Shown piece by piece: positions 3,655-62,971 of a stretch of 64,000 nt of DNA (within the stretch, counting starts at the first letter, position 1; each line of letters opens with the position of its first letter). This stretch comes from Candidatus Adlerbacteria bacterium (GTDB lineage: Bacteria; Patescibacteriota; Minisyncoccia; Phycocordibacterales; SBAW01): contig JAQBRA010000005.1 of the NCBI GenBank assembly GCA_028286685.1, positions 16,726 through 80,725 on the forward strand, given 5' to 3'. The notes beneath the pieces were generated by a model. It was given only the letters and a program-made list of their open reading frames with translations. It was not told where the DNA came from and did no database searches. A program made the translations under genes and the position numbers.

Positions 3655-4191
3655 CTACTCGGCGACCAGGGCATCTATCGACTTATCCAGCTCTGCCTCG
3701 GAAACCGGAGCCGCCTTCTCGGCCGGAGCCTCGGGCTTCTTTATCGTCTCCCCTGCCAAGCGGTCAGATCCGAAGACTGCGGCGCGGGCCTTGGGCGGCG
3801 TAATGTCCTCGCGGACGGTCTCTATGATGAGCGAGCGCAATACGTCGCGCGACGCGTTAAGCGCGGCCTCGAGCGCAGGCATCTTCTCGCGGGTTGTGGC
3901 GAACTTGATCCAGCCGAACCATGCCTCGGCGTACTTCTCGCGCTTGCCCTGCGTGGCGCGCTCGACTACGTAGGCCAGCTGCATCTTCTGCGGGTAGCCC
4001 TCGCTGATAAACTCCGCCTCGCCAATGAGCTTGCGGACACCTTCGACTGCAGCACCTACGCCGTCCTCCGCGATAGTAGGGACCAAATGGAAACCGACCT
4101 CATAAATAATGGGTGCACTAGAGACATCGGCCTCGGAGGAGGCTTCAGTCGCTTGGGTAAAGGCCTCTTCGGCCTGCGACGTTTTTGACAT
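3655..4191 (-). CDS. rpsF: 30S ribosomal protein S6 with a C-terminal Ala/Glu/Pro-rich extension
   Basis: YEVGFHLVP..QLAYVVE..WFGWIKF core typical of S6; sits upstream of ssb-rpsR. Start taken at the internal M (MSKTSQ); the ORF track extends to 4215. Confidence 0.75.
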   Translation of the reverse strand: MSKTSQAEEAFTQATEASSEADVSSAPIIYEVGFHLVPTIAEDGVGAAVEGVRKLIGEAEFISEGYPQKMQLAYVVERATQGKREKYAEAWFGWIKFATTREKMPALEAALNASRDVLRSLIIETVREDITPPKARAAVFGSDRLAGETIKKPEAPAEKAAPVSEAELDKSIDALVAE

Positions 4192-56006: not shown

Positions 56007-58340
56007 ATGCGCACTATAAAGGCGATGTATCGTCACTATTACAAGCTCCTCCATCGAACGCTCAATCCCCGCTTCGGCCACCTGTTCAATTGGGCCGACG
56101 ACAAGTTCGACAACTCTACGCGCTACTTGCGCCGCAACTGGCAATCCTTCGGCGTATGGGGCTTTGGTCTTTGCTTCTTCTTTGGCGGCGGGCTCCTGCT
56201 CTGGGCCGCAACGCTCCAGCTCCCCGACCTCAACTCGCTCGAAACCCGCCGCGTGGAGCAGTCGGTAAAAGTATTCGACCGCACCGGTACTGTGCTCCTC
56301 TTTGACCTCCACAAGAATATGCAGCGCACCGCGGTGCCGATCGATTCGGTCTCGGTTAACTTGCAGCAGGCCATCCTCTCCATAGAGGACCCGGAGTTCT
56401 ATACCCATATCGGCATCAAGCCGACTGCGATCGCCCGCGCCATCTGGACCAACTTCATGCAGGGAGAGCTCCTCTCCGGCCAGGGCGGCTCGACCATAAC
56501 CCAGCAGGTCATCAAGCTGACTATCCTGACCAGCGACAAGTCGCCGGTGCGCAAATTCAAGGAATGGATACTCGCCCTCAAGATGGAGCGCCAGCTCACG
56601 AAAGACCAAATACTCGAGCTCTACCTCAATCAGGCGCCCTTCGGCGGCCAGCTCTACGGCGTCGAGGAGGCTTCCATGACCTTCTTCGGCAAGCACGCCA
56701 GCGACCTTTCGGTCCCCGAGTCGGCGTACCTCGCGGCCATGCTTCCCGCCCCTACCCGCTACTCGCCCTACGGCACACACGTCGACCAGCTCGAAGCCCG
56801 CAAAAATCTTGTGCTCGATAAGATGCATGAGCACGGCGCCATCAGCGCCGAGGAGGCCGAGACCTACAAAGCCGAGCAGGTAACCTTCGCCCCCAAGCGC
56901 CAGAACGGCATCATCGCGCCGCATTTCGTCTTTTACGTCCAGCAGTACCTGGAAGAAAAGTACGGCACCGAGGCCCTGGAGCGCGGCGGCTGGCGCGTTA
57001 CCACCACGCTTGATGCCGACCTGCAGGTTAAGGCAGAAGAGATAGTGAAGCGCCAAGCCCTCGCCAACGTAGACAAATACAACGCTACCAACATGGCCAT
57101 GGTCGCTACCGATCCGCACAACGGCCAGATTCTCGTGATGGTCGGCTCGCGCGACTACTTCGACGAAGTTATCCCGGGAGCCTACAACGTCGCCACCATG
57201 GCGCCGGGCCGCCAGCCAGGCTCCTCCTTCAAGCCGTTCGCCTACGCGCAGGCCTTTGCCGAGGGATACACTCCCGAGACGGTAGTCTTCGATCTCCCGA
57301 CCCAGTTCTCGACCGCCTGCGAGCCTTCAGACAACTACAACAACACCGCACCCTGCTACGCGCCGCAAAACTACGACGACGCCTTCCGCGGCCCCATGAC
57401 TCTGCGCTACGCGCTGGCGGGCTCCATCAACGTCCCTGCAGTCAAAACCATCTACCTGGCGGGCTTGCAAGACACCCTGCGCCTCGCCAAGTCCATGGGC
57501 ATCTCGACCTTGGGCGATGCCAACCAGTACGGCCTCACACTGGTGCTGGGAGGCGGCGAAGTAACGCCGCTCGATATGACCAACGCGTATGGAGCATTCG
57601 CCAACAACGGCCTCCACTTCGAGGAGCAGTCGATACTGCGCATCGAGGACAGTGCAGGCAATGTTATCGAAGACAACACCCAGGCACCCGGCGTGCAAGT
57701 AATGCCCGCGAGCGTAGCCCAGCAGATAAGCGACGTACTCTCCGACAATGCGGCGCGCGCATCCCTGGGCGAGAACGATCTCTTCTCCTTCCCCGGACAT
57801 GAGGTGGCGGTAAAGACCGGTACCACCAACGACTACCGCGACGCCTGGACGGTCGGCTTTACGCCCAATATTGCCGTGGGCGCCTGGGCCGGCAACAACG
57901 ACAACACCCCCATGGAGCGCCGCGTGTCGGGCTTCATCATCGGCCCCGCCTGGGCGGAGTTCATGCGCTACGCGCTCACCAGGCTCCCCACAGAGCCATT
58001 CGCGCGCGCCGAGCTCCCTACCCCGACTAAGCCGGTCCTAAATGGCATCTGGCAGATCCCGGGCCAAGACGGCCTCATCCACGACATCCTCTACTGGGCT
58101 AACAAGACCAACCCGCAGGGCGACGGCAACTCCATAGGCGACAGCCAGTACAAATACTGGGAGTACCCAGTACAAGCATGGGTTGCGGCTAATGGCGCCG
58201 CCATGATGGGTACGAGCACTGGACAAGAAGACTGCTTTACCGATCCGGCAACCGGCCAGTGCCTCGCCGACCAGCCTTCAGAACCCCCAAGCAATAGGCA
58301 GCTCCTCCAGAGAAATAACAACGGAACCGTCCCCCGATAA
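56007..58340 (+). CDS. Class A penicillin-binding protein (PBP1A; GT51 transglycosylase + transpeptidase)
   Basis: 777 aa; EDPEFYTHIGIK, GGSTITQQV (GT51); SSFKPF, SIN, KTGTTND (transpeptidase). Confidence 0.85.
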   Translation: MRTIKAMYRHYYKLLHRTLNPRFGHLFNWADDKFDNSTRYLRRNWQSFGVWGFGLCFFFGGGLLLWAATLQLPDLNSLETRRVEQSVKVFDRTGTVLLFDLHKNMQRTAVPIDSVSVNLQQAILSIEDPEFYTHIGIKPTAIARAIWTNFMQGELLSGQGGSTITQQVIKLTILTSDKSPVRKFKEWILALKMERQLTKDQILELYLNQAPFGGQLYGVEEASMTFFGKHASDLSVPESAYLAAMLPAPTRYSPYGTHVDQLEARKNLVLDKMHEHGAISAEEAETYKAEQVTFAPKRQNGIIAPHFVFYVQQYLEEKYGTEALERGGWRVTTTLDADLQVKAEEIVKRQALANVDKYNATNMAMVATDPHNGQILVMVGSRDYFDEVIPGAYNVATMAPGRQPGSSFKPFAYAQAFAEGYTPETVVFDLPTQFSTACEPSDNYNNTAPCYAPQNYDDAFRGPMTLRYALAGSINVPAVKTIYLAGLQDTLRLAKSMGISTLGDANQYGLTLVLGGGEVTPLDMTNAYGAFANNGLHFEEQSILRIEDSAGNVIEDNTQAPGVQVMPASVAQQISDVLSDNAARASLGENDLFSFPGHEVAVKTGTTNDYRDAWTVGFTPNIAVGAWAGNNDNTPMERRVSGFIIGPAWAEFMRYALTRLPTEPFARAELPTPTKPVLNGIWQIPGQDGLIHDILYWANKTNPQGDGNSIGDSQYKYWEYPVQAWVAANGAAMMGTSTGQEDCFTDPATGQCLADQPSEPPSNRQLLQRNNNGTVPR

Positions 58341-58360
58341 AGTAAGAGTAAGTTAGAAAT

Positions 58361-58397
58361 AAAAAAGCGATCAGAGATAACTTCTGATCGCTTTTTT
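58361..58397. terminator. Rho-independent terminator marking the left edge of the low-GC island
   Basis: aaaaaagcgatcagagataacttctgatcgctttttt. Confidence 0.6.
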
Positions 58398-58431
58398 ATA
58401 TCGGCGTCACTACTACAATACCCTTAGCTGA

Positions 58432-58836
58432 CTAACGACCAACCCCTTTCAATAGCCCCGTATAGGAAGTGCGATTCTTCCATAGGAAATAGGCATTGAG
58501 CAGCAGCATGATATCGGCTAGTCCTGCCCCGGCCGTAAGCAGGCCTCCATCGATAAAGAAGTGGAACGCGACTACGTTCACCGTGATCGGAGCGATAAGA
58601 AGCGCAGCTAATGCTTCCCGCTTCGTCCACAAGGCAATAAGTGCAACAACATTCACGACTGCCATTATCCAGTTGATATACATGACACTCGTGAGCATCT
58701 GGATAAAAGCGAAAGCCAGGTCCGTATTGTAGAGATCCCGAGTAGCTTCACCAAAGATTCCGGTCGTTCCAAGAACGGGCAGGATGAGGATGAGCGAAAA
58801 TACGACCTTGCTTGCTACATGAAGAACTTTTTTCAT
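58432..58836 (-). CDS. DoxX-family membrane protein
   Basis: 134 aa, 4 TM helices; in the low-GC island. Confidence 0.55.
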   Translation of the reverse strand: MKKVLHVASKVVFSLILILPVLGTTGIFGEATRDLYNTDLAFAFIQMLTSVMYINWIMAVVNVVALIALWTKREALAALLIAPITVNVVAFHFFIDGGLLTAGAGLADIMLLLNAYFLWKNRTSYTGLLKGVGR

Positions 58837-58932
58837 GGATGGGTAGCTGAAGTGTTAATAATTATATGGAAAGTATAGCAGTGGATATTTGGCCGTCTAG
58901 GACGATATCCGACCAAATTATAACCACCTCAA

Positions 58933-58965
58933 GTTAGCTGGGTGTATCGGGACGATACTGGAATC
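58933..58965. repeat. Island intergenic motif, copy 1 (GCTGGGTGTATGGGACGATGTTGGAACC family)
   Basis: gttagctgggtgtatcgggacgatactggaatc, ~100 nt upstream of the DoxX start. Confidence 0.6.
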
Positions 58966-58979
58966 TGTAAAGGTAAATC

Positions 58980-59375
58980 CTATTTGTTACCGTGCATATA
59001 AAAAACATTCCACTTGTGGTGGTCGAGGTCGGCAAAACTTCGACCATATATCGTATCCATATCTGCCGGCTCGTGAAGCTCCAAACCACCGGCTTTAATA
59101 GCATTACCAACAAGTGAATCAACTTCTTCCCTGCTGTCCGCCCCGATTGAAATAAGCACTTCATTCGCTTTCGAAGCGTCAGCCATTTCACCCATAGACG
59201 CTTCCTTAAAATGGGGCTCGGGCAACAGCGCAACAACGACATTCTCGGCCACGACGAAACATGTTGCATGTTCATCCGTAAGATTAGAATCGATTGAAAG
59301 TCCCATCTGAGAGAAAAATGCCTTCGATTTTTCAATGTCTTTGACGGGTAGATTTAAGATGACTTGTTTTGACAT
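58980..59375 (-). CDS. VOC-family (glyoxalase/bleomycin-resistance fold) protein
   Basis: 131 aa; paired beta-alpha-beta-beta-beta modules (..ILNLPVKDIEKSKAFF.., ..DLDHHKWNVF..). Confidence 0.6.
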   Translation of the reverse strand: MSKQVILNLPVKDIEKSKAFFSQMGLSIDSNLTDEHATCFVVAENVVVALLPEPHFKEASMGEMADASKANEVLISIGADSREEVDSLVGNAIKAGGLELHEPADMDTIYGRSFADLDHHKWNVFYMHGNK

Positions 59376-59471
59376 GGTGATGTGTGTTAATTATTTCTTC
59401 TGCGTTTTACAGGTTTTCTCTCATAAAATTCAGTCGAGATGCTCCTCGGGGTCCGAGGCCTATCACAACGA

Positions 59472-59499
59472 GCTGAGTGTCTGGGACGATGTTGGAACC
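59472..59499. repeat. Island intergenic motif, copy 2
   Basis: gctgagtgtctgggacgatgttggaacc, ~100 nt upstream of the VOC start. Confidence 0.55.
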
Positions 59500-59524
59500 C
59501 GCTCCGACAGTCCGGATACAGTTT

Positions 59525-60475
59525 TTATTGGATTTTCTGAACTTTTCCGGTCGCGCGGTCAAGCGAATACTGGCCGCAGTCCGGACACGGGATTCCATTC
59601 ATGGCCTGGCCCTCGCTTTGATATTTAAAATACAAAATCTTAGAGCCATCTTTTGAGATTGATACCCCTCCTTCGCTGCCGTGCGGAAAATTCTCCACCG
59701 TATCGGCCTTTTTATCAATGACGCATATCCTGAAATAATTTGCATACCCAATTACGCTCCCATCAGCAGAAAAGGCTGTTGGATAGACGCGCGGTAAAAT
59801 TGGCTCAGCACCCGCCGGGTTGCACGTTGCAGGCAATACCCTTGAGTACTCGGCATTGTCGGTAATGAGATTCACGGGGCCTACGACAGTATCGTTCAGG
59901 TAAATCCAGTTCTTATCCTTGGCGACCGGAGAAAGCACAAATGTTTCAGGGTCCGCTTCGGGTATCACGTGGTCGTTGCTATACACATGACTTTTATCCT
60001 TGCCATACCCGGTCTGCAGGGGGTCGATAGCTTCAGGAGACGAATACAAAACAGGCGCGAATGTTGCTGGGTCTGCTCCGACAATACTATAGCCGCCTAC
60101 ATAAAACACACTGCGTTCGTCTTTGGCGTATTCCTTGCTAAGTATGGTAAAAGTCGCAGGGTCGGCTCCTGCTACGACCAAATTGCACCAGTACACATAG
60201 TTTTTGTCCTTGCCGTACCCGTCGAGTGACGACGCGACAAACGTAGCAGCATCCGCTTCCGGGAGCGGAGTGCCCATGCATGAGATAGCGTTGTCTTGCA
60301 GCGTATACCAAGTGTAGCTTTGGCTTACGACGTAGCTCGCCGGCAATGTGCTCGCTGGGCGCCACTCAATCTGCACAGACGCGCTGGATGGCCTTTGCAT
60401 AATCACCGCATACGCGCTGCCCAAAATAATAAGGGTAATAAGTGCGATGCCTATGTAAATATTTTCCTGTTTCAT
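59525..60475 (-). CDS. DKNYY-repeat secreted protein
   Basis: N-terminal TM/signal, then repeated GYGKDKNYVYW / GYGKDKSHVYSND / AKDKNWIYLND units; start taken at the internal ATG with an AAGG RBS (the ORF track starts at an upstream GTG). Confidence 0.6.
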   Translation of the reverse strand: MKQENIYIGIALITLIILGSAYAVIMQRPSSASVQIEWRPASTLPASYVVSQSYTWYTLQDNAISCMGTPLPEADAATFVASSLDGYGKDKNYVYWCNLVVAGADPATFTILSKEYAKDERSVFYVGGYSIVGADPATFAPVLYSSPEAIDPLQTGYGKDKSHVYSNDHVIPEADPETFVLSPVAKDKNWIYLNDTVVGPVNLITDNAEYSRVLPATCNPAGAEPILPRVYPTAFSADGSVIGYANYFRICVIDKKADTVENFPHGSEGGVSISKDGSKILYFKYQSEGQAMNGIPCPDCGQYSLDRATGKVQKIQ

Positions 60476-60537
60476 TAGAGATAACCTTATTCTACTGCCA
60501 GCAATCGACGCGTCTCGAGCGCGATAACCTAGCACGA

Positions 60538-60569
60538 CTTGGCTGGGTGTATGGGACGATGTTGGAACC
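60538..60569. repeat. Island intergenic motif, copy 3 (best consensus copy)
   Basis: cttggctgggtgtatgggacgatgttggaacc, ~65 nt upstream of the DKNYY start. Confidence 0.6.
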
Positions 60570-60570
60570 T

Positions 60571-61425
60571 TTATGCGATTTCTTCAGGATTCCACGACTG
60601 GTGGATACTCTCGTCAAGACTGTCTATAGCCGCCATATCCTCGGCTGAAAGTTCAAAATCGAACACATCTATGTTTTCTTTGATTCTTTTCTGTTTTACG
60701 GACTTAGGGATAGGGATACAACCCTTTTGTAAACTCCATCGTATCAGTACTTGCGCGTTAGTTTTGCCGTACTTCTGTGCAATTAAAGTCAGCGAGTCAT
60801 TGTCCATCTTTCGCGCTTTAACTAAAGGCGCATACGCCTCAAGCACAATGCCACTTTCATTACAATATTTTAGTAGGTCTTTTTGGTGCAAGAAGGGGTG
60901 GAATTCAACCTGATTCACAGCAGGTAAAATATTTGCATACTTCTTCAATTCCTCAAGATGTTTGACTGTGTAGTTTGAAACACCAATCGCCTTAGCCTTA
61001 CCGGATGCAAGGATATGCTCCATGGCGCGCCAAGTTTCCTCTCTTTTGTTTACAGTAGTAAATCTATCTTCTTCTGCACTTGGCCAATGTACAAGATATA
61101 AGTCCACGTAAGACAGATTAAGATTCTGGAGCGACAAATCGACGGCTCGTAAAGCGTTTTCGTAGCCTTGGTCCGTATTCCAGAGCTTTGTTGTAACGAA
61201 TATTTCTTCTCTAGGTACCCTTGAGGCGAGCACCGCTTTGCCAACGCCGCCCTCATTGCCGTAAATAGCAGCAGTATCAATAAGCCGATATCCGGCTTCC
61301 AAAGCCCAAGCTATAGCTTGCTCGACTTCAGTACCCTCTTGCGATTTATAAACACCAAGACCCATAACTGGCATTTCAACGCCGTTATTCAAAATCCTTT
61401 TTGTGTTGATATTTAACTTTTCCAT
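60571..61425 (-). CDS. Aldo/keto reductase (2,5-diketo-D-gluconate reductase-like)
   Basis: 284 aa; ..LNNGVEMPVMGLGVYK.. ..IDTAAIYGNE.. ..LYLVHWP.. Confidence 0.85.
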   Translation of the reverse strand: MEKLNINTKRILNNGVEMPVMGLGVYKSQEGTEVEQAIAWALEAGYRLIDTAAIYGNEGGVGKAVLASRVPREEIFVTTKLWNTDQGYENALRAVDLSLQNLNLSYVDLYLVHWPSAEEDRFTTVNKREETWRAMEHILASGKAKAIGVSNYTVKHLEELKKYANILPAVNQVEFHPFLHQKDLLKYCNESGIVLEAYAPLVKARKMDNDSLTLIAQKYGKTNAQVLIRWSLQKGCIPIPKSVKQKRIKENIDVFDFELSAEDMAAIDSLDESIHQSWNPEEIA

Positions 61426-61427
61426 AA

Positions 61428-61458
61428 GTTGCTGGGTGTATGGGACGATGTTGGAACC
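61428..61458. repeat. Island intergenic motif, copy 4
   Basis: gttgctgggtgtatgggacgatgttggaacc, ending 2 nt upstream of the AKR start codon. Confidence 0.6.
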
Positions 61459-61509
61459 ATTGTAGCAAAAGATGAGGCCGCCTGGTGAGGGCGGCCTCTT
61501 TTCGTTTCG

Positions 61510-61794
61510 CTAGCTTCCCTTCAATCCGAAAGCTTCGTTCACGGCTGCAATGTGTCCAAATCCCGCCTTGTCCCAATCGGCATTTGATATGACACGGGTA
61601 CGTGTTTCGCCCGGATATGCGGCGGCAAAAGAGGCGCGCATTCGCATAAGTGACTGGCCCAGTTTCTTTGCAGTCGCAGGATCTTTTCGCGCAAAAGACA
61701 GCAAGCTTACACTCATGCGGTCCGAAATCGAGCCGGCAATAAGCTGCATATCCATTTTTTTGGATATGGGCCTTAACTTCCTATTCTGTGCCAT
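61510..61794 (-). CDS. Hypothetical protein
   Basis: 94-aa ORF with a GGGAG RBS 6 nt upstream; in the low-GC island. Confidence 0.4.
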   Translation of the reverse strand: MAQNRKLRPISKKMDMQLIAGSISDRMSVSLLSFARKDPATAKKLGQSLMRMRASFAAAYPGETRTRVISNADWDKAGFGHIAAVNEAFGLKGS

Positions 61795-61850
61795 ATGGAA
61801 CTCCCTGATGACTCTGGAATGACACTACATTTTTTATTTATACAAGTCGA

Positions 61851-61872
61851 GCTGGGAGACATGGATTAGAAC
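61851..61872. repeat. Island intergenic motif, degenerate copy 5
   Basis: gctgggagacatggattagaac, upstream of the 94-aa gene and abutting the dnaN stop. Confidence 0.4.
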
Positions 61873-61873
61873 T

Positions 61874-62971
61874 CTAGCGGTTCATCGGCATCGCGAGGTA
61901 GAGGAAGGAGTCGTCGGAGGCATCCTTGATAAGCATGGGCTTGCCGGCGCCGTTGGAGTGGAGGCGCACACTGTCCCCCACTATCGACTGCAAGCTGTCG
62001 GCCAAGTAGCGGCCATTGAATGACACCGCGACCCCGTCGCCCTGTATGGTCGCTTTGACGGTCGAGATCTGCTCGCCAACATCCGGATTGCGCGAAGAAA
62101 GGAAAAGGGATTTCTTTTCAGGATCTATAGCGAGGGAAACCTGGGCGAACTTGTCGGCAAATATCGAAAGCGACTTGAGCGCTGAAGACATATCCTCGCG
62201 CAGCACCAATGCTTCGGTTGAGAATTCCTTGGGGAGTATCTGGCGATAGTTCGGGAAGGCGCCATCAAGAAGGCGTGAGGTGTAGTAAATAGCATCGGCC
62301 TGGGTCGAGAGCTGGTTGTCATTGTAATAAATCTCTATATCGCCCTTAACGGTCTCGAGGACGCGCATGAGCTCGGCGGCATTGCGCGCCGGCACCAAGA
62401 GTTGCGGGATGCTTCCACCCGACTTCAGCGCCATCTGCTTTTCTGCCAAGCGGAAAGAGTCTGTGGCAACCGTAGTCAGCTTGCCCGCATCGCCGTATAC
62501 CAAAACGCTTTGCAGTTCCGGCTTAACCGCCGAGAGCGAGGCGCAATAGGCGACCGAACGTATAGCGCGCACTAAGTCGGAAGCCTTGATAGTGAAGGAA
62601 GTTTCTGCCGACACGCGCGGCAAAATCGGGAAGTCCTCATGCGGAATGGTTTTAATAGAAGCATTGGCGCGCTCGCCTTCAACCTTTAAAACCTCTCCCA
62701 CTAAAGAAACGGTGACTGATTTTCCTTTTGAGTTATTGAGGAAGCCGCTCAAGACCCCCGCAGGAGCCGCCACAGTGCCCTCTGTCGTAACTTTAGCGGG
62801 TACTACGATCTCCACCCCACATTCAAGGTTAGTCGCGCGCAGCGTGATCCTGGAGCCTTCTGCAGTTATGAGTACACATCCGAGTACTGGAAGGTTTGCC
62901 CTCCTCTCTGCGAACCTTGAAGCGGTAGCGACCGCCTGTGCCAGGCTTTCAGTTGTGGTCTCGAATTTCAT
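61874..62971 (-). CDS. dnaN: DNA polymerase III beta sliding clamp
   Basis: 365 aa, MKFETTTESLAQAVATASRFAERRANLPVLGCVLI.. three-domain clamp. Confidence 0.9.
   Translation of the reverse strand: MKFETTTESLAQAVATASRFAERRANLPVLGCVLITAEGSRITLRATNLECGVEIVVPAKVTTEGTVAAPAGVLSGFLNNSKGKSVTVSLVGEVLKVEGERANASIKTIPHEDFPILPRVSAETSFTIKASDLVRAIRSVAYCASLSAVKPELQSVLVYGDAGKLTTVATDSFRLAEKQMALKSGGSIPQLLVPARNAAELMRVLETVKGDIEIYYNDNQLSTQADAIYYTSRLLDGAFPNYRQILPKEFSTEALVLREDMSSALKSLSIFADKFAQVSLAIDPEKKSLFLSSRNPDVGEQISTVKATIQGDGVAVSFNGRYLADSLQSIVGDSVRLHSNGAGKPMLIKDASDDSFLYLAMPMNR

Follow-up and report, generated by a model that had tools for sequence, protein, structure and literature searches.

A probable mobile gene-cassette array headed by a tRNA-Gln 3' fragment in a Patescibacterium

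A 28-nt motif recurs between the genes of a low-GC island of Candidatus Adlerbacteria bacterium, and we propose that it is probably not the binding site of a regulator but the recombination site that ends each mobile single-gene cassette. On this reading, the cassettes belong to an integron-like system that is widespread in ultra-small Patescibacteria, starts at a tRNA-Gln 3' end and is probably run by a large serine recombinase (LSR). Such a system was not encountered in any of our literature searches. The island lies in a 64,000-nt stretch of DNA (GCA_028286685.1, contig JAQBRA010000005.1, positions 16,726 to 80,725), which was analysed as a whole and is referred to below as the window.

A compositionally distinct island between dnaN and PBP1A

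The initial annotation described an AT-rich stretch between the PBP1A gene and dnaN, in which five small same-strand genes are each preceded by a copy of the motif, and this observation was confirmed. Uniform GC across the region had been named in advance as an outcome that would speak against an island. Instead, the island (positions 58341-61873) has 46.6% GC compared with 56.7% in the rest of the window, and the lowest other 3.5-kb window has 51.7% (mean 56.7, sd 1.4). The five genes, all on the minus strand, were compared with Pfam and NCBIfam profiles (Table 1). The earlier label "DoxX" for the gene furthest from dnaN was supported by neither database; its product belongs to a Patescibacteria-specific family without a Pfam domain.

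The motif, hereafter the "M site", reads GGTTCCAACATCGTCCCAnACnnCCAGC, or GGTTCCAACATCGTCCCATACACCCAGC in gene orientation. Besides two exact copies and one copy with 2 mismatches, no other copies with up to 3 mismatches were found in the 64 kb, where 0 are expected by chance. A fourth copy carries 3 mismatches and a 1-nt insertion. The fifth copy, previously regarded as degenerate, is real but represents a different site class, a tRNA-Gln 3' fragment (the "T site"). The motif both precedes each gene (5-100 nt from the ATG) and follows the previous one, and not only the former as first described. The sequence ATTAACAC occurs twice against 0.86 expected, and since 24% of shuffles reach 2, it is weak evidence on its own.

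Table 1. Features of the island, listed from the dnaN side towards PBP1A (positions in the window)
Position	Strand	Feature	Observations
61851-61873	-	T-type site at the head of the array: stand-alone tRNA-Gln 3' fragment (T-loop, T-stem 3' strand, acceptor 3' strand, then G and C)	GAGTTCTAATCCATGTCTCCCAGC in sense orientation; starts directly after the dnaN TAG stop codon; only match in 64 kb on this strand to TTCNANY + 5 nt + 5 nt + CAGC
61510-61794	-	Cassette 1 gene, 94-aa hypothetical protein	No Pfam or NCBIfam hit; own TTGTATAAAT promoter-like element and GGGAG Shine-Dalgarno-like sequence
61474-61498	.	G+C-rich hairpin, terminator-like on both strands, between the 94-aa gene and M1	9-10 bp stem with 8 G-C pairs, followed by a T run
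61431-61458	-	M1, 28-nt M-type site	GGTTCCAACATCGTCCCATACACCCAGC; exact match to the consensus; 5 nt upstream of the AKR ATG
60571-61425	-	Cassette 2 gene, aldo/keto reductase (AKR, DkgA-like)	PF00248, E 6.6e-58; NF008598, 271 bits, below the equivalog cut-off
60542-60569	-	M2, exact M-type site	Starts 1 nt after the AKR stop codon (TAA-A-GGTTCC)
59525-60475	-	Cassette 3 gene, DKNYY-repeat protein with N-terminal transmembrane or signal segment	PF13644, E 2.9e-17; TAGAAT -10-like box 13 nt upstream of the ATG
59472-59499	-	M3, M-type site	GGTTCCAACATCGTCCCAGACACTCAGC; 2 differences from the window consensus
58980-59375	-	Cassette 4 gene, VOC/glyoxalase-fold, bleomycin-resistance-like protein	PF22677 (E 1e-7); PF00903 (E 4.5e-4)
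58937-58965	-	M4, decayed M-type site	GATTCCAGTATCGTCCCGATACACCCAGC; 3 mismatches and a 1-nt insertion
58432-58836	-	134-aa membrane protein; last cassette or distal flank of the array	No Pfam or NCBIfam hit; 567 homologues, the best-scoring ones 64-78% identical; not flanked by M or T sites in four other genomes
58426-58446		At best a relic of a site after the last gene; no clean site follows it	GGTTGGTCGTTAGTCAGCT
58356-58402	.	Bidirectional terminator hairpin closing the island, facing the end of the convergent PBP1A gene	Inverted repeat with 20-nt arms, 95% complementary

To examine whether the island is present in relatives, as had been suggested as a check, we compared genomes whose dnaN is 85-93% identical. 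These retain the synteny dnaA-dnaN-[gap]-PBP1A-TyrRS-RuvC but lack the island: the gap is empty in some and filled with other genes in others, and it varies without any motif. The reading of the stretch as a horizontally acquired, compositionally distinct island is supported. Neither a tRNA nor a T-type site was found at this position in the relatives, and how the array reached it is unexplained. The location next to dnaN/oriC, which had been singled out as noteworthy, looks incidental; in most other genomes where the head of the array can be seen it lies at a tRNA-Gln, often downstream of dnaX.

M sites form co-oriented arrays in Patescibacteria

M sites were found as same-orientation arrays in at least 130 Patescibacteria loci, where they flank hundreds of unrelated genes in both gene orientations. 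Copies are always co-oriented within a locus, 83 of 120 metagenome loci hold 2 to 10 copies, and the median spacing is 544 nt. A sequence logo of 351 unique copies gave A-n-A-A-A-R-GTTCCAACATCGTCCCA-G-AC-n-S-CCAGC-A-A with random flanks. The positions specified by the search patterns are conserved partly by construction; the independent evidence is CCCAGC, which the genome scan left unspecified, together with the random flanks. A generic genome-wide REP-like repeat, named beforehand as the finding that would overturn the first reading, was not what we observed, as the motif is confined to arrays.

The organization of the genes follows a cassette logic. In about 100 of the roughly 350 copies examined, the upstream stop codon ends within 4 nt of the site. 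The next gene usually brings its own -10 box and a leaderless ATG: TAnnnT lies 5-8 nt before the start codon in 64 of 115 sense cassettes, whereas a Shine-Dalgarno-like sequence is present in only 8. About 37% of cassettes carry their gene antisense to the site.

The arrays begin at a tRNA-Gln 3' end or a stand-alone 3' fragment of it. Of the 33 loci that hold any tRNA, 28 have a co-oriented tRNA-Gln upstream of the first M site, and at least 9 other arrays are headed by stand-alone fragments like that of the window. Consecutive site pairs were T then M in 43 cases, M then M in 219 and M then T in 5. Within the T site of the window, TCTCCCAGC is identical to the 3' end of tRNA-Gln(TTG) in L001, L009, L010, L026 and L130 (L numbers denote the loci or genomes compared), and CCATGTCTCCCAGC is identical to a T-like end in the related genome L006.

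Related genomes differ by exactly one [gene + M] unit, inserted right after ...CAGC. L012 reads T|AAACTG, whereas L010 reads T|[about 350 nt + M]|AAACTG. Similarly, L131 reads M|Y and L126 reads M|Z-M|Y. L031 and L068 are 100% identical up to ...CCCAGC and then diverge at once, with one carrying a small cassette and the other an LSR element. Furthermore, cassette homologues of 73-95% identity sit among non-homologous neighbours, in support of mobility.

A large serine recombinase is the candidate enzyme

In nine or more related loci, an LSR (PF00239, PF07508 and PF13408) with a rolling-circle Rep lies within reach of an M site. No recombinase was found in the 64-kb window, and an LSR was seen in only about 9 of 136 motif-centred loci, although these loci span only 1-14 kb. 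In six of the loci (L025, L068 and L183-L186) the 3' end of the LSR gene abuts or overlaps the tRNA 3' end, and in five of these six the far end of the element is an M-type site; in L183 the left arm is divergent. In L184 and L183 the last 7-10 nt copy the 3' end of that tRNA (Lys and Trp), whereas only CAGC is shared in the tRNA-Gln cases. The related genome L006 carries an LSR together with an M site identical to that of the window.

The geometry of the two sites is also consistent with such an enzyme. T is GGTTC-13 nt-CCAGC and M is GGTTC-18 nt-CCAGC; the 15 nt nearest the crossover match at 12 of 15 positions, and the distal motif is shifted by 5 bp. This is the arrangement described for LSR attB versus attP half-sites (PMC3783163).

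Proposed model and alternative explanations

With moderate confidence, we interpret the island as an array of four or five mobile single-gene cassettes built by site-specific recombination. In this model, each cassette is a gene, usually with its own -10 promoter, followed by one M site, and new units are inserted immediately after the ...CCAGC shared by T and M, so that a tRNA at the head stays intact and every cassette ends in an M site. T would behave like an attB left half-site, in the role of an integron attI, and M like an attP left half-site, in the role of attC. The most likely enzyme is an LSR supplied in trans from roughly 3.6-6.8 kb HTH-Rep-LSR integrative elements, which occupy the same tRNA sites in related genomes. 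The data show the anatomy and wide distribution of the arrays, their anchoring at tRNA-Gln, the exact insertion junctions, the turnover of cassettes between genomes, the co-location of the LSR with T and M boundaries and the 5-bp offset. In contrast, it is an inference that this LSR moves the small cassettes, as are the position of the crossover and the presence of the enzyme outside the window in this particular genome. Some features fit the model less well. The small cassettes carry only the left (P) arm and the core, and lack the roughly 29-nt P' arm conserved among LSR elements. Characterised LSRs recombine only full attP with full attB and do not reuse attL as a target, so repeated insertion and M x M exchange would need relaxed rules. 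The antisense cassettes are unlike those of integrons, and the last gene of the window has no clean site after it.

The initial annotation interpreted the motif as an operator of a co-regulated stress and detoxification regulon, or alternatively as a short dispersed repeat that seeded the island; this interpretation is partly supported, as the second option is close to the truth whereas the regulon is not supported. The motif does lie upstream of every gene of the island, and the cassette genes are small "house-cleaning" enzymes both here (VOC and AKR) and in other arrays (HAD, NUDIX and GNAT). However, it lies about 4-19 nt from the -10 box (read by eye from the upstream regions) and 2 to more than 100 nt from the ATG, and in the AKR cassette it ends 5 nt before the ATG, which leaves no room for a promoter. 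It has no dyad symmetry, does not fold, is absent from the other 60 kb of the window, accompanies antisense genes, and coincides exactly with the breakpoints of cassette presence or absence between related genomes. A role as operator, promoter element or RNA signal is therefore considered very unlikely. It is also unlikely that cassettes are shuffled by natural transformation and RecA-dependent homologous recombination, with the 28-nt repeats as homology and no dedicated enzyme involved. Patescibacteria encode a comEC-type DNA uptake system (PMC12102498), an M x M deletion such as the L126/L131 difference could arise in this way, and the dnaN-PBP1A gap of relatives varies without the motif. 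Yet the sites at the L012/L010 T|M junction share only about 7 bp, which is too short for RecA, and this model does not explain the tRNA anchoring, the T-first order, the 5-bp offset or the near-invariance of 24 positions across distant lineages.

Two further possibilities are unlikely but carry somewhat more weight. The array might be a graveyard, in which full-length LSR/Rep elements integrated repeatedly at the tRNA site and each lost everything except one cargo gene and its right-end scar (the M site), so that the small units were never independently mobile. This would agree with the need of LSRs for both half-sites and the missing P' arm, with LSR elements that end in sense-oriented small genes followed by an M site and beyond which arrays continue (L185), and with the stronger decay of the M sites furthest from the head in the window (M4). 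On the other hand, random decay would not leave hundreds of units that all begin right after ...CAGC with a promoter and end with a stop codon abutting the next site. Single units differ with exact junctions between genomes that are 92-95% identical, the same T site holds a small cassette in L031 and an LSR element in L068, and homologous cassettes recur in unrelated contexts. Slightly less likely is a different recombinase acting in trans, such as a chromosomal Xer-type tyrosine recombinase or an HUH single-strand nuclease, with the LSR elements merely sharing the tRNA target. The shared CCAGC+WA segment (7 bp) is the size of a tyrosine-recombinase overlap region, one-sided conservation and strict orientation suit nucleases that cut 3' of a recognised sequence, and an Xer-type gene abuts the end of the array in L098 and L124. 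These are, however, the only 2 related loci out of 136 with such a gene nearby, and it looks like a housekeeping xer gene. The M site has no dyad symmetry and forms no hairpin, and relaxases are mostly absent from Patescibacteria (PMC12102498). Moreover, the conserved left arm of M is also the right boundary of LSR elements that target tRNA-Lys and, in a divergent form, tRNA-Trp, which ties the arm to the LSR.

Comparison with known systems

The arrays resemble integrons (IntI, attI and attC gene cassettes) in their co-oriented, mostly single-gene cassettes of about 0.5 kb, each ending in a recombination site that often abuts the stop codon, in the distinct head site at which new units are inserted, in cassette turnover between close relatives, and in a cargo of small accessory enzymes and proteins of unknown function. 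They differ in that no IntI tyrosine recombinase lies next to the array, and the site is an unstructured 28-nt element conserved in sequence rather than a 57-141-nt hairpin conserved in structure. Cassettes usually carry their own promoter and give leaderless mRNAs instead of relying on a common Pc promoter, about 37% are antisense, and the head site is a tRNA 3' end.

Composite islands of the staphylococcal cassette chromosome (SCC), with the large serine recombinases CcrAB/CcrC, integrate at the extreme 3' end of a conserved housekeeping gene that is left intact, and form tandem arrays separated by short direct-repeat att sites, with some elements lacking the recombinase and presumed to be mobilised in trans. 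The present arrays share these traits, with an LSR as the candidate enzyme, but target a tRNA (Gln, Lys or Trp) rather than rlmH, consist of single genes of about 0.5 kb rather than units of 20-60 kb, have internal attP-type left half-sites that are 5 bp longer than the target-type site, and occur in a Patescibacterium. The comparison with SCC was not tested here.

The tRNA-anchored islands built by tycheposons in Prochlorococcus (10.1101/2020.12.28.424599) are likewise found in streamlined genomes next to tRNA genes, with successive integrations pushing older elements outward and full-length and partial tRNA repeats marking the boundaries. Tycheposons, however, use tyrosine recombinases, carry their integrase and are several kb long, and their repeats are plain partial tRNAs, whereas most repeats here are a distinct 28-nt site and most units have no recombinase. 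In comparison with the attP/attB sites of serine integrases (LI, Bxb1 and phiC31 model), T and M share the sequence nearest the crossover, and the displacement of GGTTC by exactly 5 bp matches the zinc-ribbon-domain motif in attB versus attP half-sites (PMC3783163). Here, only one half-site is conserved in the small cassettes, identity with the target extends over about 10-15 nt rather than only the central dinucleotide, and attP-like sites occur in tandem arrays in the chromosome.

Composition and gene content of the low-GC stretch

The low-GC stretch between PBP1A and dnaN in this Candidatus Adlerbacteria (Parcubacteria group) metagenome-assembled genome was first examined for its composition, genes and repeats (see the table). 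The stretch of 3.5 kb has 46.6% GC, compared with 56.7% in the rest of the window, and no other 3.5-kb segment falls below 51.7%. An even GC content had been named in advance as an outcome that would speak against an island, and it was not found. Five ORFs, all on the minus strand, fill the stretch: a 94-aa hypothetical protein, an aldo/keto reductase, a DKNYY-repeat protein, a VOC/Ble-like protein and a 134-aa membrane protein. The initial annotation had labelled the last of these as DoxX, which is not supported by Pfam or NCBIfam; the protein belongs to a Patescibacteria-specific family with no Pfam domain. Rfam (gathering threshold) and ARAGORN searches of the window found only 8 tRNAs, none of them in the island.

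The repeated motif reported in the initial annotation is real. Two copies are exact, one has 2 mismatches and one is decayed, while no other copies are present in the window and none is expected by chance. In gene orientation the motif reads GGTTCCAACATCGTCCCATACACCCAGC. It lies 5-100 nt upstream of the next ATG and also directly downstream of the previous gene, with the stop codon of the aldo/keto reductase 1 nt away from it. A further shared element, ATTAACAC, occurs only twice in the window, upstream of the 134-aa gene and the VOC gene, but 0.86 occurrences are expected and 24% of shuffles reach 2, so any meaning is unclear.

Coordinates of the features in the window and in the related loci discussed in the text
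Sequence	Position	Strand	Feature
Window	56007-58340	+	PBP1A
Window	58341-61873		dnaN-PBP1A gap holding the low-GC stretch
Window	58432-59375	-	134-aa membrane protein gene and VOC/Ble-like gene (together)
Window	58852-58859	-	ATTAACAC, upstream of the 134-aa gene
Window	59384-59391	-	ATTAACAC, upstream of the VOC gene
Window	about 60500-60546		Start of the DKNYY cassette
Window	61851-61873	-	T site, GAGTTCTAATCCATGTCTCCCAGC
Window	61871-61876		Stop codon of dnaN and start of the T fragment
Window	61874-62971	-	dnaN
L006	about 3921-4072 (reverse complement; original about 3929-4080)		Element of about 150 nt directly after the single M site
L006	6610-6725	-	LOOT RNA (RF03000)
L098	5434-6471	-	Xer-type tyrosine recombinase gene
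L124	4771-5565	-	Xer-type tyrosine recombinase gene
L178-L181	1 to about 4600		VirB4/TraG-like ATPase and four hypothetical genes
L185	3756-7822	-	LSR element at tRNA-Gln and the cassettes that follow it
L190	4598-5402		Glyoxalase-fold gene and homologue of the 134-aa membrane protein gene

Distribution of the motif in other genomes

To learn whether the motif is restricted to this island, a degenerate pattern scan was carried out on one genome per species, which returned 24 loci. Fifteen of these carry the motif, and in thirteen of the fifteen the part that had been left unspecified in the pattern (CCCAGC) is conserved as well, while the flanks are unrelated. Twelve of the fifteen are labelled Patescibacteria (Paceibacterota, Nomurabacteria, Pacebacteria and others), and the other three are unclassified or probably misbinned. 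The remaining 9 loci (Jannaschia, Thermococcus and others) lack the extension and are the number expected by chance. A stricter scan of metagenome contigs gave at least 120 loci, of which 83 hold 2 to 10 copies, and copies never occur in mixed orientation within a locus. A scan of viral contigs gave 33 hits (L145-L177), all from one family of phages with 60-70% GC, in which the 20-mer GTTCCAACATCGTCCCAGAC lies inside one conserved gene with conserved flanks, reads VWDDVGT on the opposite strand and lacks CCAGC. These hits were rejected as a chance match in a coding sequence that appears unrelated to the cassette site.

From 351 unique copies, the logo of the motif (the M site) is A-n-A-A-A-R-GTTCCAACATCGTCCCA-G-AC-n-S-CCAGC-A-A, with random sequence beyond it, and 24 of the 28 positions are 89% conserved or more. 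Positions specified by the search patterns are conserved partly by construction, so the independent evidence is the unspecified CCCAGC together with the random flanks. The spacing between copies ranges from 65 to 6951 nt, with a median of 544 nt and an interquartile range of 413-676 nt, and in about 100 copies the stop codon of a sense ORF ends within 4 nt of the site. After the site there is typically a short A/T-rich stretch, then a TGnTAnnnT-like -10 box, then 6-7 nt and the ATG, without a Shine-Dalgarno sequence; TAnnnT is present in 64 of 115 sense cassettes and a Shine-Dalgarno-like sequence in 8. About 37% of cassettes carry their gene antisense to the site. Arrays have lower GC than their flanks in 16 of 18 cases. 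The cargo consists of small accessory proteins (HAD, NUDIX, GNAT, cupin, SDR, deformylase, APH and others), most of which have no Pfam hit.

Arrays start at tRNA-Gln

In 28 of the 33 loci that contain any tRNA, a tRNA-Gln (TTG or CTG anticodon) lies co-oriented upstream of the first motif copy, usually about one cassette length away. The first cassette begins immediately after the ...CAGC of the tRNA and opens with the same AA/TA and -10 box as cassettes that follow an M site. Stand-alone tRNA-Gln 3' fragments, from the T-loop to the 3' end, also head arrays where no tRNA is present, in at least 9 loci. There are therefore two site classes: the 23-nt T site, GGTTCGAnnCCnnGTCnnnCAGC, and the 28-nt M site. 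Among consecutive site pairs, T is followed by M in 43 cases, M by M in 219, M by T in 5 and T by T in 3.

The initial annotation had described a degenerate fifth copy of the motif at the dnaN end of the island, which is in fact a T site. It is the only match to the T pattern on that strand in 64 kb, and its acceptor part equals that of tRNA-Gln(TTG) in several genomes. It begins right after the TAG stop codon of dnaN (CGC TAG AGTTCTAATCC), and a T fragment in two related loci, L010 and L012, similarly overlaps the TAG of a core gene, at the end of an HI0933-like gene (GCG TAG TTCGATCC). The T-stem sequence CTAGG itself contains TAG. How a T fragment and array came to lie after dnaN is not known.

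Cassettes are inserted and lost as units at the sites

Comparison of related loci showed that cassettes differ as whole units, exactly at the sites. The flanks of L012 and L010 are 91.6% identical. With the junction marked by a slash, L012 reads ...GGTCTGCCAGC / AAACTGATATAG..., followed by a NUDIX gene, whereas L010 reads ...AGTCTGCTAGC / AATATT...(about 350 nt)...GGTTCCAACATCGTCCCAGACACCCAGC / AAACTGATATAG.... One unit of body and M site sits exactly after the T site, and the partners share only CCAGC+AA. In locus L131, cassettes X and Y are adjacent, while locus L126 has an extra 877-nt unit between them with breakpoints at the edges of the M sites. Loci L031 and L068 are 100% identical through the tRNA and the T fragment up to ...CCCAGC and then diverge at once. 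In addition, cassette homologues of 73-95% identity have non-homologous neighbours. We also tried to locate the crossover from motif positions 19, 22 and 23 and from cassettes that occur after both T and M sites, but neither approach was informative.

Presence or absence of the island in relatives had been proposed beforehand as a check, and relatives having the same genes without the motif had been named as a refuting outcome. Five loci with related dnaN genes (L178-L182) were compared with the window. They keep the order dnaA-dnaN-[gap]-PBP1A-TyrRS-RuvC-YebC-RuvB, but the gap differs in every relative examined. It is 63 nt with only a terminator in L181 and L182 (dnaN 85% identical) and holds two other genes in L180 (88%); in L178 and L179 (92-93%) other sequence is followed by a contig end. 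A Ham1-like gene was also found in the gap, and two contigs end right after dnaN. None of the relatives has an M or T site there, and the gap is therefore a general hotspot, or an assembly breakpoint, independent of the motif. The five island proteins have no homologues in the motif-scan loci, the dnaN-relative loci or the loci with recombinases described below. No clean site follows the last gene, encoding the 134-aa protein, and its homologues in four other genomes are not flanked by sites, so it may be the distal flank rather than a cassette. In one locus with such a homologue, L190, a 130-aa glyoxalase-fold gene directly precedes it with a 10-nt gap and no site; the gene order matches the window, but the two VOC proteins are not detectably homologous.

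A candidate recombinase

Pfam counts on 280 ORFs flanking arrays showed no recurrent recombinase family, and a regular-expression search for serine recombinases missed the one described here. Only by reading the ORFs next to tRNA-Gln in loci where the first M site lay 6-7 kb away was a large serine recombinase (LSR) revealed, carrying Resolvase, Recombinase and zinc-ribbon domains and accompanied by a rolling-circle Rep (PF23343/RepSA or Phage_CRI). The LSR gene is convergent with the tRNA and its 3' end abuts ...CAGC, while the element ends 6.4-6.8 kb away in an M-type site. Homologues occur in 7 further motif loci. One of these is L006, which belongs to the same genome as L181 and contains an M site identical to the two exact copies in the window. 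The family is large, and source names place it in Parcubacteria and Paceibacterota.

Four more members on large chromosomal contigs (L183-L186) show the same pattern. The LSR is preceded by a Rep gene in three of the four and by an HTH regulator in three of the four, and its 3' end overlaps a convergent tRNA, which is Gln in L185 and L186, Lys in L184 and Trp in L183. The far end of the element carries the left arm RGTTCCAACATCGTCCCA in L184-L186 and a divergent version in L183. In L184 and L183 this arm is followed by 7-10 nt copying the 3' end of that particular tRNA, while in the two tRNA-Gln cases only CAGC is shared. It suggests why positions 19 and 22-23 of the M site vary, as they lie in the part of the site that corresponds to the acceptor strand of the tRNA. 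In L185, the element at tRNA-Gln is followed by 6-7 M-bounded cassettes, one of which encodes a true PF07681 DoxX protein, and a HIT-family gene follows the last M site.

The domain set and position expected of an LSR integrative element were observed in related loci, in L025 and L068 by our own Pfam scan and in L183-L186 by precomputed Pfam hits, of which L184 and L185 show only Resolvase and Recombinase. In the window a tblastn search gave no hit, and since the rest of this genome was outside the analysis, these observations leave undecided whether the island itself is served by such an element. The geometry of the sites also fits. T and M match at 12 of the 15 positions nearest ...CAGC, and both carry GGTTC distally, 5 bp further out in M. 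For serine integrases, the zinc-ribbon-domain motif of attB is shifted 5 bp toward the centre relative to attP (PMC3783163).

Comparison with known systems

The logic of the arrays is that of an integron, with co-oriented single-ORF cassettes each followed by one recombination site and insertion at the head site. However, the defining features of integrons (IntI, hairpin attC and Pc) were sought and not found. No tyrosine recombinase lies in the window, and only L098 and L124, two related metagenome loci, carry an Xer-type gene (PF00589 + PF02899) nearby, convergent with the last M site of the array and about 20 nt away. Whereas attC sites are imperfect inverted repeats conserved in structure rather than sequence, the M site is conserved in sequence and does not fold: the single-stranded DNA minimum free energy is 0 to -1 kcal/mol, with z-scores of 0.3-1.0, on both strands. 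The lack of structure rejects attC-like, REP-like and terminator-like readings. The closest enzymatic analogue is the SCC/Ccr system. The closest ecological analogue is tycheposon-built islands at tRNAs in Prochlorococcus, which use tyrosine recombinases and plain partial-tRNA repeats; no element-encoded tyrosine recombinase was found here. Such islands integrate into the 3' part of a tRNA gene and have a partial tRNA direct repeat at the far end. Related arrays start at an intact tRNA-Gln, but the window has only the 3' fragment, at the head of the array rather than the far end, so on this feature the case is not settled either way.

The initial annotation interpreted the motif as the binding site of a regulator shared by a regulon, and this was not supported. 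The distance from the motif to promoter and start codon is variable, the flanking genes are unrelated and some cassettes are antisense to the site. Frequent occurrence in unrelated contexts, as expected of a generic REP-like repeat, had been named as the outcome that would refute that reading; the motif is not palindromic, has no copies in the other 60 kb of the window and elsewhere occurs only in arrays. A CRISPR array, with direct repeats of 28-37 nt and non-coding spacers of about 30-40 nt, does not fit either, given the spacing and the genes in the intervals. We also considered a dif/Xer site, rejected because the motif has no inverted arms; an ECF-sigma promoter, rejected because AAC and CGTC are only 2 nt apart; a -35 element, rejected because the distance to the -10 box is variable; and a DNA uptake sequence, rejected because the motif is not genome-wide.

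The arrays, their anchoring and the exact junctions are read directly from the sequences, whereas the mechanism by which single-gene units move, and by which an entry site is reused, is inferred and unproven. The small cassettes lack the P' arm that the LSR elements share, the sequence after CCAGC being only A/T-rich, so that two recognizable half-sites around a central dinucleotide are not present, and characterized LSRs recombine only attP with attB. The main alternative is that the cassettes are remnants of full elements. The regularity of the units and the exact single-unit differences argue against this, but do not exclude it.

As a more far-reaching and only tentative hypothesis, Patescibacteria may possess their own integron-like gene-capture system, evolved independently of integrons. 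In this view, a large serine recombinase carried by small Rep-encoding integrative elements would use a tRNA 3' end as the entry site of the array and a 28-nt unstructured attP half-site as the cassette tag, and could mobilize single promoter-bearing genes that carry only that half-site. If so, serine integrases can work on half-site substrates and reuse the entry site, and this would also be a main route of gene flow in these ultra-small, reduced genomes. No paper was found that contains the 15-mer or describes such arrays in Patescibacteria, although the literature searched was incomplete and prior description cannot be excluded. Patescibacteria have tiny genomes and few recognized mobile elements, and how they gain and lose accessory genes is poorly understood. 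A cassette system present in well over a hundred loci, from groundwater, soil, sediment and other samples, would be one concrete mechanism. It would also be a second, independently evolved solution to capturing one gene at a time, built on a serine instead of a tyrosine recombinase, with a short, sequence-defined site that is attractive for genome engineering and lends itself to a T x M recombination assay. The 28-mer, together with the tRNA-Gln fragment, is a simple marker for accessory regions in metagenome-assembled genomes, and it also explains why assemblies break there.

Other features of the related genomes

Directly after the single M site of L006 lies an element of about 150 nt, GCTGGGAGA...GGTTCCATGTCTCCCAGCCA, with a 9-bp closing stem and a tRNA-like 3' end, which is recognized neither by ARAGORN nor by Rfam (E up to 1). 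The 47 nt that follow are 91% identical to the start of the DKNYY cassette in the window. A LOOT RNA (73.7 bits against a gathering score of 46.4) lies about 2.5 kb from the M site in the same locus. In L178-L181, a VirB4/TraG-like ATPase and four hypothetical genes lie beyond dnaA and the rpmH-rnpA-yidC genes, about 1.7 kb upstream of dnaA, which fits the published note that the Patescibacteria type IV secretion system lies near the origin (PMC12102498).
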